Source: a virus
Taxonomy: Duplodnaviria > Heunggongvirae > Uroviricota > Caudoviricetes
Virus record (IMG/VR): IMGVR_UViG_2851949629_000009
Location: 1 to 23,710 of that record
Reading direction: 5' to 3' (one strand)
DNA: 23,710 bases
In this document: positions 1-3,000 of the stretch, piece by piece
How positions within the stretch are numbered: the stretch's first letter is position 1
How the letters are laid out: the number at the start of each line of letters is the position of its first letter
Position numbers: made by a program

Positions 1-3000
1 TCACCCGCGATTAACCAACAGCCAGACCAGCAGACACGCCACCACCGGCACAGCAAAATCCATCAGACTTGCCACATCCCACGCGCGTGGGTCAAAACCG
101 CCCCGCCACGGCATATTCATACGCTTGCCATGCCCGAACATTTCAATCCAGCGATATTATGCCTGGGGTGTTCAAGCGCAATGAAGTACGTATTGTATCT
201 TCGCGATTTTTTATAGGCTAATTGACGCGCAATTCTGAGCGGGGAGCGCACAATCAAACAGCACAGAATGGATCGCTGATATGTAAGCGTAAACCGACTG
301 CCGTATGTAGCCATTAAGCCAGTATTGGTAACGTAGGTGCCCACCTTTTCAAACTAGTGGACGCCTGTTATGGAGCAAAAAACATTATCCGCAGAACCCC
401 GCAGATCATTTTCAAATAATTTTAAACTTCAAATGGTTAAACTGGCTTTGCAACCAGGAGCCTCTGTTGCCCGTATCGCCCGGGAACACGATATCAATGA
501 TAACCTCCTGTTCAAATGGCTCAGGCTCTGGCAGAACGAAGGGCGTGTTTCGCGGCGTCTTCCGGTAACGACCTCTTCTGACACTGGCGTTGAATTATTA
601 CCTGTAGAAATAACGCCGGATGAGCAGAAAGAACCTGTGGTGGCCATTGCGCCATCTTTATCCACTACCACTCAGACCAGAGTCAGTGCCAGCTCCTGCA
701 AGGTGGAATTCCGTCACGGTAACATGACGCTGGAAAATCCATCGCCAGAGCTGCTCACGGTGTTGATCCGTGAACTGACCGGGAGGGGAAGATGATCTCA
801 CTCCCATCAGGTACCCGTATCTGGCTCGTTGCCGGCGTTACCGATATGCGTAAATCCTTCAACGGACTGGGAGAACAGGTACAACATGTGCTGAATGATA
901 ATCCCTTCTCCGGTCACCTGTTTATCTTCCGTGGCCGACGGGGTGACACCGTTAAAATTCTTTGGGCTGATGCTGATGGTCTGTGCCTGTTCACCAAACG
1001 CCTGGAGGAAGGCCAGTTTATCTGGCCTGCGGTACGTGACGGCAAGGTATCCATTACCCGCTCGCAACTGGCAATGCTCCTCGATAAACTGGACTGGCGT
1101 CAGCCAAAAACATCCAGCCGTAACTCACTGACAATGTTGTAAAAAACTCCTGACCGCATTATAAAAACGGTCATGAGTCAGAAATACCTCATTCGCATCG
1201 CAGAGCTGGAAAGGTTGCTCTCTGAGCAGGCTGAAGCCCTCCGTCAGAAAGACCAGCAACTGAGTCTGGTTGAAGAGACGGAAGCCTTCCTGCGCTCTGC
1301 ACTGACACGTGCCGAAGAAAAGATCGAAGAAGATGAACGGGAAATAGAACATCTGCGGGCTCAGATAGAAAAACTGCGCCGGATGCTGTTCGGTACCCGT
1401 TCTGAAAAACTGCGTCGTGAAGTTGAACTGGCTGAGGCTCTGCTGAAACAACGTGAACAGGACAGCGATCGTTACAGTGGGCGGGAAGACGATCCTCAGG
1501 TTCCCCGCCAGTTGCGACAGTCGCGCCATCGTCGTCCGTTACCGGCACACCTTCCCCGTGAAATACACCGCCTGGAGCCAGAAGAAAGCTGTTGCCCGGA
1601 GTGTGGCGGTGAGCTGGATTATCTGGGGGAAGTCAGCGCTGAACAGCTGGAACTGGTGAGCAGTGCCCTGAAAGTGATCCGCACAGAACGGGTAAAAAAA
1701 GCCTGTACAAAATGTGACTGTATTGTTGAAGCACCGGCGCCGTCCCGCCCGATAGAGCGTGGTATCGCGGGCCCCGGATTACTTGCCCGCGTGTTCACGG
1801 GAAAATACTGCGAACATCTGCCACTGTATCGTCAGAGTGAAATCTTTGCCCGCCAGGGTGTCGAACTGAGCCGGGCCTTACTCTCCAACTGGGTTGACGC
1901 GTGCTGCCAGTTAATGACACCGGTGAATGATGCCCTGTACCGTTATGTAATGAACACCCGCAAGGTTCACACTGATGACACACCGGTAAAGGTACTGGCA
2001 CCGGGTCAGAAAAAGGCGAAAACAGGGCGTATCTGGACGTATGTCCGGGATGATCGCAATGTGGGTTCGTCATCTCCTCCAGCGGTCTGGTTCGCGTACT
2101 CGCCGAACCGGCAGGGGAAACACCCGGAGCAACACCTCCGCCCCTTCCGGGGTATCCTGCAGGCGGATGCGTTCACAGGTTACGACAGGTTGTTCAGTGC
2201 AGAACGTGAAGGTGGTGCACTGACAGAAGTTGCGTGCTGGGCCCATGCCCGGCGAAAAATCCACGATGTATACATCAGCAGCAAAAGTGCGACGGCAGAA
2301 GAAGCCCTGAAGCGAATCAGTGAACTGTACGCCATTGAGCACGAAATACGCGGGTTGCCGGTGTCTGAACGCCTGGCGGTCAGGCAGCAGCGAAGCAAAG
2401 TGTTACTGACGTCGCTGCATGAATGGATGGTGGAGAAGAATGGTACGCTGTCGAAAAAATCCAGACTGGGCGAAGCGTTCAGCTATGTACTGAATCAGTG
2501 GGATGTCCTCTGTTATTACAGTGATGACGGTCTGGCGGAGGCGGATAATAATGCTGCGGAAAGAGCGCTTCGTGCAGTCTGTCTCGGAAAGAAAAACTTT
2601 ATGTTCTTTGGCAGCGATCACGGCGGCGAGCGTGGAGCACTGTTGTACGGGCTGATCGGCACCTGCCGTTTGAACGGTATCGATCCGGAAGCGTATCTGG
2701 GCCATATCCTGAGCGTACTGCCGGAATGGCCTTCCAACCGAGTTGATGAACTCCTGCCATGGAACGTAGTACTCACCAATAAATAAGCGTCAATACGGTG
2801 CTCCGTTGACGCTTACGGTTAACGGACTTGAACCGCTACCCATTCGCTTACAAGGCGACTGCTCTACCATTGGAGCCAAACCAGCATATTTGGCGGGACA
2901 GCGTGGACTCGAACCACGATAAGAAGGTTAACAGCCTTCCGTAATGACCTTTATACGACTGACCCAAATAAAAAAAGCCACCGTTGCAACTTAAGAGTCA

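Follow-up and report, generated by a model that had tools for sequence, protein, structure and literature searches.

Results

The stretch of DNA analyzed here, referred to throughout as the window, comprises the 23,710 nucleotides (nt) of the IMG/VR viral record IMGVR_UViG_2851949629_000009 (Caudoviricetes), and it carries the early half of a lambdoid prophage together with a pair of tRNA genes. ARAGORN reports no tRNA genes in the window other than these two, which lie on the minus strand: Thr(tgt) at 2811-2886 and Asn(gtt) at 2891-2965. Both also match the Rfam tRNA model RF00005, for which the gathering score is 29: the Asn gene over 2894-2965 (55.3 bits, E = 1.3e-9, full model 1-71) and the Thr gene over 2814-2885 (43.8 bits, E = 1.9e-6, also past the threshold). 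A scan of the whole window at the gathering thresholds reported no Rfam family beyond these two matches. Considering the alignments with related phages described below, it is very likely that the pair belongs to a phage 21-type late-leader tRNA cassette, in which the tRNA-Thr gene has been cut at nucleotide 69 by the insertion sequence (IS) ISEc23 at a deletion of the late genes while the tRNA-Asn gene has stayed intact. The parts of the pair, in the direction of transcription, are the following.

2891-2965, minus strand: intact tRNA-Asn gene, anticodon GUU, 75 nt, with an encoded CCA and discriminator G73 (ARAGORN, RF00005)
2886-2890, minus strand: 5-nt spacer between the tRNA-Asn and tRNA-Thr genes, AATAT (AACAT in phage 21)
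2817-2885, minus strand: truncated tRNA-Thr gene, anticodon UGU, nucleotides 1-69 of 76 as defined by alignment with phages; nucleotides 70-72, A73 and CCA are missing
2811-2816, minus strand: 6 nt of ISEc23 terminal-repeat DNA (GTAAGC) wrongly placed in the 3′ end of the Thr gene by ARAGORN

An earlier note on this DNA, made from the sequence by eye, had proposed two tandem minus-strand tRNA genes 5 nt apart with anticodons TGT and GTT. ARAGORN, Rfam and the AATAT spacer agree on the arrangement, and ARAGORN on the anticodons; the note would have given up its proposal had both intervals returned no calls or only low-scoring ones, and both programs return matches for each. Its two cloverleaves fared less well, because that of the Asn gene is complete and that of the Thr gene is not, only 69 of the latter's 76 nt being phage DNA.

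Minus-strand alignments with phages 21 and phi458 show that the Thr gene is truncated: phage homology extends no further than 2817, the position of nucleotide 69 in this gene. Identity runs through ...GTCCGTTAACC (also given as ...CCGTTAACC), after which the phages continue with AGCACCA and the window with GTAAGCG, the ISEc23 terminal repeat; on the plus strand, the region over the junction (2810-2819) reads ...cgcttac on the IS side and ggttaacgg... on the phage side. The earlier note overlooked this truncation, although the start coordinate that it gave, 2817, is the exact boundary of the IS. The 76-nt Thr gene reported by ARAGORN is a chimera, with 6 nt of IS DNA at its 3′ end and one base of the spacer at its 5′ end, and the best register of the acceptor stem within this call allows only 5 of 7 pairs. 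The G1-A72 and C2-U71 positions are broken in the window and U3-G70 is a wobble pair. Likewise, the RF00005 score of the window copy (43.8 bits) lies 17.7 bits below that of the intact phage 21 copy (61.5 bits), and the minimum-energy fold of the phage 21 gene is a cloverleaf whereas that of the window copy is not. Over the retained part the gene is identical to that of phage 21 at 68 of 69 positions.

These differences bear directly on the capacity of the remnant to act as a tRNA. The remnant at 2817-2885 has no complete acceptor stem, no discriminator and neither a 3′ CCA nor a CCA-addition site. The Escherichia coli threonyl-tRNA synthetase uses the pairs G1-C72 and C2-G71 as identity elements; the window copy retains the UGU anticodon and has lost these first two acceptor pairs. 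More generally, the identity of tRNA-Thr has been assigned to acceptor-stem base pairs together with anticodon nucleotides (PMC9976931). Because pairs 1-72 and 2-71 are broken, a proper 3′ end is lacking and acceptor pairs are part of threonine identity, we infer that the remnant cannot give a functional tRNA and should be regarded as a pseudogene. The sole substitution within the retained 69 nt, relative to phages 21, phi458 and Sf6, is A9G at position 2877; it is compatible with relaxed selection, although a single change proves nothing.

The Asn gene presents the opposite picture. It is identical to its phage 21 counterpart at 75 of 75 positions (100%), phage L gives the same 100% figure, and the phage 21 copy has the same RF00005 score (55.3 bits). 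Its cloverleaf is complete, with a seven-position acceptor stem, the discriminator and CCA, an anticodon loop of 7 nt in which position 33 is U and position 37 a purine, and a GTTCGA T-loop. The acceptor-stem mismatch and 3-bp D-stem remarked on in the earlier note do exist, and in the Rfam alignment they correspond to U4·U69 in the acceptor stem and U13·U22 in the D-stem, where three standard pairs are left; these are the only non-standard pairs in the gene, and phages 21 and L have the same ones in their copies. Since the gene is identical in those two phages, the mismatches are native features of a conserved gene and not signs of decay, and the suspicion that the Asn gene might be degenerate does not hold; of the pair, it is the Thr gene that is the truly degenerate copy. 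The elements that specify asparagine identity are the anticodon and G73 (PMC9976931), and G34-U35-U36 and G73, as read from the sequence, are all present. The Asn gene is thus structurally intact, but housed in a dead prophage.

Immediately upstream of the pair lie the components of a late transcriptional switch.

3057-3545, minus strand: antiterminator Q, 162 amino acids, identical to phage 21 Q at 162 of 162 positions by BLASTP (Pfam Phage_antitermQ)
3015-3050, minus strand: late promoter pR′, with the phage 21 annotation carried over by alignment
2966-3013, minus strand: late terminator tR′, with the phage 21 annotation carried over (coordinates moved by +1316); the sequence is identical to that of phage 21

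Within pR′ the -35 element occupies 3045-3050, the Q-binding element 3027-3042, the -10 element 3022-3027, the transcription start 3015 and the pause element 3008-3014. The promoter and terminator region matches phage 21 except at one base, 3018, where the substitution is shared with phi458. Folding of tR′ gives a hairpin of 17 pairs followed by U7 (-20.9 kcal/mol, z = -3.5), the end of which lies 4 nt ahead of the first base of the tRNA-Asn gene. A simple terminator scan over 2700-3700 reported none; the terminator is seen in the folding, and a bulged base in its stem is a possible cause of the miss. The earlier note's placement of the tRNA genes between Q and an IS was right, and the site can now be named as the leader of the late operon.

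The segment 2817-3400 (584 nt) is 99.7% identical to phi458 and 98.5% identical to phages 21 and SfI, and wherever a matching phage record has its tRNAs annotated, the features given at this site are antiterminator Q, tRNA-Asn and tRNA-Thr. In phage 21 (OL657228.1) the order is Q, the pR′ -35 element, the Q-binding element, the -10 element, the transcription start, a sigma-dependent pause element, tR′, Asn, Thr, the holin S21, endolysin and spanins. The window shares the position of the pair after Q21, pR′ and tR′ and the near-identity of both tRNA genes; the lysis cassette and late operon that should follow are absent. Among 5,426 complete E. coli genomes, 346-368 (about 6%) contain the intact 156-nt pair, and the records list tRNA-Thr and tRNA-Asn.

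The DNA beyond the truncated end of the Thr gene is accounted for by the following features, to which we add a second IS66-family element from elsewhere in the window.

283-2816, plus strand: ISEc23, IS66 family, 2534 bp, with tnpA at 370-795, tnpB at 792-1142 and tnpC at 1173-2786 (Pfam IS66 domains)
1-192, minus strand: 3′ remnant of a small membrane-protein gene, a homologue of CPT_21_24 (93% by blastn against phage 21 21683-21875)
11611-14151, genes on the minus strand and thus opposite to those of ISEc23: ISEc43, IS66 family, 90% identical to ISEc23

Complete E. coli genomes contain many copies of ISEc23 with 99.9% identity to this one, and the BLAST matches, whose limits we used to set the ends of the element, stop exactly at 283 and 2816; an inverted-repeat tool did not report its imperfect terminal repeats. 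IS66-family elements make 8-bp target-site duplications. ISEc43 serves as an internal control in this respect, with a perfect 8-bp duplication, ACCTACCT, on both sides. ISEc23 has none: its flanks are GCTGATAT and GGTTAACG (275-282 and 2817-2824), and the 8-bp duplication that marks simple transposition of this family is therefore absent. Comparison with the whole phage 21 genome by BLAST places window 2817-3558 at 39739-38998 and window 1-192 at 21875-21683, collinear with a gap. CPT_21_24 is a membrane protein with two transmembrane segments that lies past the tail fibers and adjoins sitD of the sitABCD cargo, and the same neighborhood is found in E. coli DETEC-E480. Because there is no target-site duplication and the far flank matches phage 21 some 24.8 kb further on, ISEc23 marks the joint of a deletion that removed holin, endolysin, spanins, cos, terminase, head, tail and fibers, or about 24.8 kb in phage 21 coordinates. 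With its whole late operon deleted, the prophage is therefore defective. The DNA between the remnant and the IS (193-282) has no match in phage 21 or in E. coli DETEC-E480, and stops break the reading frame there.

Discussion

The tRNA pair described here is not new: it is the annotated and published set of phages 21, Sf6 and SfI, and no test in this analysis spoke against its identity with the phage 21 cassette. The announcement of the phage 21 genome reports "2 tRNA genes" (PMC9119081), the SfI paper notes that one or both tRNAs also occur in Sf6, ST64T, PS3 and p21 (PMC3636060), and the phage L paper describes Asn and Leu in L and Asn and Thr in Sf6 at the same site (PMC8022706). In this light the locus adds nothing new to phage tRNA biology, and the retention of an invariant tRNA-Asn gene is a question already raised in the literature. 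The more practical lesson concerns annotation: automatic tRNA finders, and the pipelines that depend on them, will give the tRNA-Thr here as full-length although its 3′ end consists of IS DNA, and a pseudogene label is due.

It is informative to compare the locus with other phages that carry tRNA genes. Phage 21 (CPT_21_64 and CPT_21_65), phi458 and SfI have the same order of Q21, pR′ with the Q-binding element, tR′, Asn and Thr; unlike phage 21, the window has a Thr gene that ends at nucleotide 69 in ISEc23, and it has lost the holin, endolysin, spanin and virion genes by deletion. Sf6, BTP1 and other P22-like phages carry the pair in the same place after the late terminator (PMC8022706), with 99.4-100% identity, although they are podoviruses with P22-type virion genes and their Q gene and promoter reach only about 85% identity across the 584-nt query (about 85-86% for Sf6, and roughly 85% for BTP1 and many P22-like Salmonella phages). 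The Salmonella phages L and ST64T have an identical Asn gene in the same location (PMC8022706), but their second gene is a tRNA-Leu(UAA) with a 72-nt body instead of Thr-UGU. Outside this group, phage P1 trnA-trnT (L011 601-754) and the Asn-Thr-Ser genes of Cyrano (L010 301-453) likewise place Asn ahead of Thr in a tandem, and the anticodons are identical. Their Thr genes are related to that of phage 21 (about 77-80% BLAST identity, with shared acceptor and T arms), whereas their Asn genes, with stems that are fully paired, are of another lineage, and their context is not a Q-dependent late leader. Another comparison is with the Shiga toxin (Stx) phage 933W, which carries ileZ, argN and argO upstream of stx2. 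As in that phage, the tRNA genes here follow Q and pR′ in a lambdoid late transcript; the anticodons differ (Ile and Arg there, GTT and TGT here), as does the type of Q, and no stx gene follows. The earlier note, which had proposed either a phage tRNA set distinct from that of 933W or degenerate copies, was right that the set differs from Ile/Arg/Arg, but the set is a familiar one, that of phages 21, Sf6 and SfI.

In phages where the pair is intact, both genes may well be functional. The pair is 100% identical between phages 21 and Sf6 even though the surrounding Q region has diverged to about 86%, and in the Thr gene positions 3 and 70 covary, pairing as T-A in phage 21 and C-G in P1, Cyrano and the host gene thrU; together these observations argue for function. 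Because the genes begin 4 nt past the U-tract of tR′, we infer that in intact phages the tRNAs would be made only when Q21-modified polymerase reads through the terminator, and RNase P and the enzymes that trim 3′ ends would then release them from the late transcript. Once released, tRNA-Thr(UGU) could add decoding capacity for ACA, a codon used two to three times more by the phage than by the host. ACA occurs 12.6 times per 1000 codons in the late genes of phage 21, 14.0 times in its early genes and 16.4 times in the open reading frames of the window, compared with 5.7 times in 31 genes sampled from the host K-12 (Fisher p = 8e-9). The SfI paper likewise describes a bias toward ACA (17.3 vs 7.1) and no bias in Asn codons (PMC3636060).

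Several observations weigh against parts of this interpretation. The junction between the IS and the tRNA gene rests on one assembly; it is absent from the 5,426 complete E. coli genomes, and the 35-mer that spans it is absent from the species-representative genomes. A junction private to the source strain would account for this, and we consider an assembly artefact less likely; if the junction were an artefact, the uninterrupted form expected at 2700-2900 would be AACCAGCACCA. In terms of function, Asn codons number 38-43 per 1000 in the phage and 37 in the host, which is no such difference as that seen for ACA and leaves the Asn gene unexplained by codon supply. Furthermore, the major capsid gene of phage 21 has 22 Thr codons, of which just 1 is ACA, and because of this rarity the codon-supply argument is moderate and not strong. 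Whether the tRNAs are cut out of the late mRNA or have a promoter of their own was stated as not known in the phage L paper (PMC8022706), and our search of the literature returned no expression or aminoacylation data on this tRNA family. Finally, processing of a truncated tRNA with four Watson-Crick acceptor pairs and one G·U could nevertheless yield a stable RNA of some kind.

Other explanations of the locus deserve consideration. One might suppose that both tRNA genes are complete and functional and that the IS merely abuts the pair, given that both calls exceed their thresholds and ARAGORN reports a Thr gene of full length, 76 nt. This is very improbable, because six nucleotides at the 3′ end of that call belong to ISEc23, its 5′ end is off by one base and only 5 of 7 acceptor pairs form; seven nucleotides have been replaced relative to three intact copies, with the accompanying 17.7-bit drop and a minimum-energy fold other than a cloverleaf. 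It is even harder to defend a simple insertion of ISEc23 into the tRNA-Thr gene, in which the remaining part of this gene, and the lysis genes, would lie just past the IS. Such an event is what IS66 elements would lead one to expect, since they usually leave an 8-bp duplication, as ISEc43 has done elsewhere in the window, but the flanks of ISEc23 differ, the far flank corresponds to phage 21 21875-21683 and not to 39740 onward, and neither AGCACCA nor the S21 holin is found next to position 282. Consistent with loss, BLAST against the phage 21 genome reveals no holin or endolysin homology anywhere in the window. An inversion between ISEc23 and ISEc43 was also considered as the cause of the missing duplication and was excluded, as ISEc43 has its own perfect duplication and the two elements are only 90% identical. 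The explanation to which we give least credence, verging on none, is that the tRNA-like sequences are attachment-site remnants of host tRNA genes. Many prophages and islands do integrate in tRNA genes and leave partial duplicates, and relatives of this phage use thrW (PMC3636060). However, the pair is only 58-66% identical to the host genes asnT, thrU and thrT, its place in the late leader is some 20 kb away from the integrase gene (22637-23710), and the genes are unchanged in free phage genomes.

A different kind of alternative accepts the deletion and the truncation and asks what the tandem does in intact phages. Here the Asn-Thr pair would serve mainly in counter-defense, replacing host tRNAs hit by toxins or defense nucleases, and not in codon supply. 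The lack of Asn codon bias, both here and in the SfI paper (PMC3636060), fits this idea, as does the invariance of the Asn gene across E. coli and Salmonella phages, the identity of the whole pair in Shigella phage Sf6, and the recurrence of the Asn-then-Thr order in the unrelated P1 and Cyrano. The stems also differ strongly from those of the host tRNAs (identities of 44/76 and 50/76, which mark the 58-66% range). Precedents exist on both sides of such a conflict: colicin E5-type nucleases cut tRNA-Asn, and tRNAs of phage T5 have been reported to counter tRNA-cleaving defense systems. On the other hand, the anticodon loops (CUGUUAA and CUUGUAA) are the same as those of host asnT and thrU and contain no change hinting at escape from a nuclease, so that an enzyme recognizing only the loop would cut both; no defense system targeting these two tRNAs was identified here; and the enrichment of ACA favors plain codon supply for Thr. 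On balance we view counter-defense as unlikely to be the main role. It is more doubtful still that the tandem is a countermeasure against tRNA-targeting toxins or nucleases and that the surviving module of Q21, pR′, tR′ and tRNA-Asn has been kept in the gutted prophage for the benefit of the host. We therefore return to a phage 21-type cassette broken at a late-gene deletion as the reading to carry forward; a literature search for prophage deletions mediated by ISEc23 found nothing specific.

Other features of the prophage

The rest of the window represents the early half of a lambdoid prophage, with genes for a NinI-type phosphatase, NinG, replication protein P, CII, a repressor with an S24-peptidase domain (LexA/CI-type), N, a Rad52-family recombinase and an exonuclease, and the integrase at the right end. 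Two of these are listed here.

3536-4282, minus strand: calcineurin-like phosphoesterase (NinI-type), 248 amino acids, between NinG and Q
14194-14502, plus strand: N protein (Pfam N_peptide, 130.9 bits)

Where the window has the NinI-type gene, phage 21 has only a NinH fragment, and window 3559-4362 is without phage 21 homology; in contrast, phi458 has a gene annotated as NinI at the same position. A 174-amino-acid open reading frame adjoining the repressor gene (10424-10948, minus strand) has no Pfam match.

ISEc43 has the pL region on one side and the N gene on the other, where it ends 42 nt upstream of the start codon (14194); it probably cuts N off from pL. Because of this, Q, and hence the tRNA, is probably only rarely expressed in the window prophage. 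The window therefore illustrates the decay of a lambdoid prophage, with one IS-associated deletion of about 25 kb of late genes whose breakpoint falls within a tRNA gene, and a second IS just upstream of N. The arginine-rich motif of N, GNAKTRRHERRRKLAIERD, appears to be of the phage P22 N type; if so, the combination of a P22-type N with a phage 21-type Q would appear to be an ordinary lambdoid mosaic.

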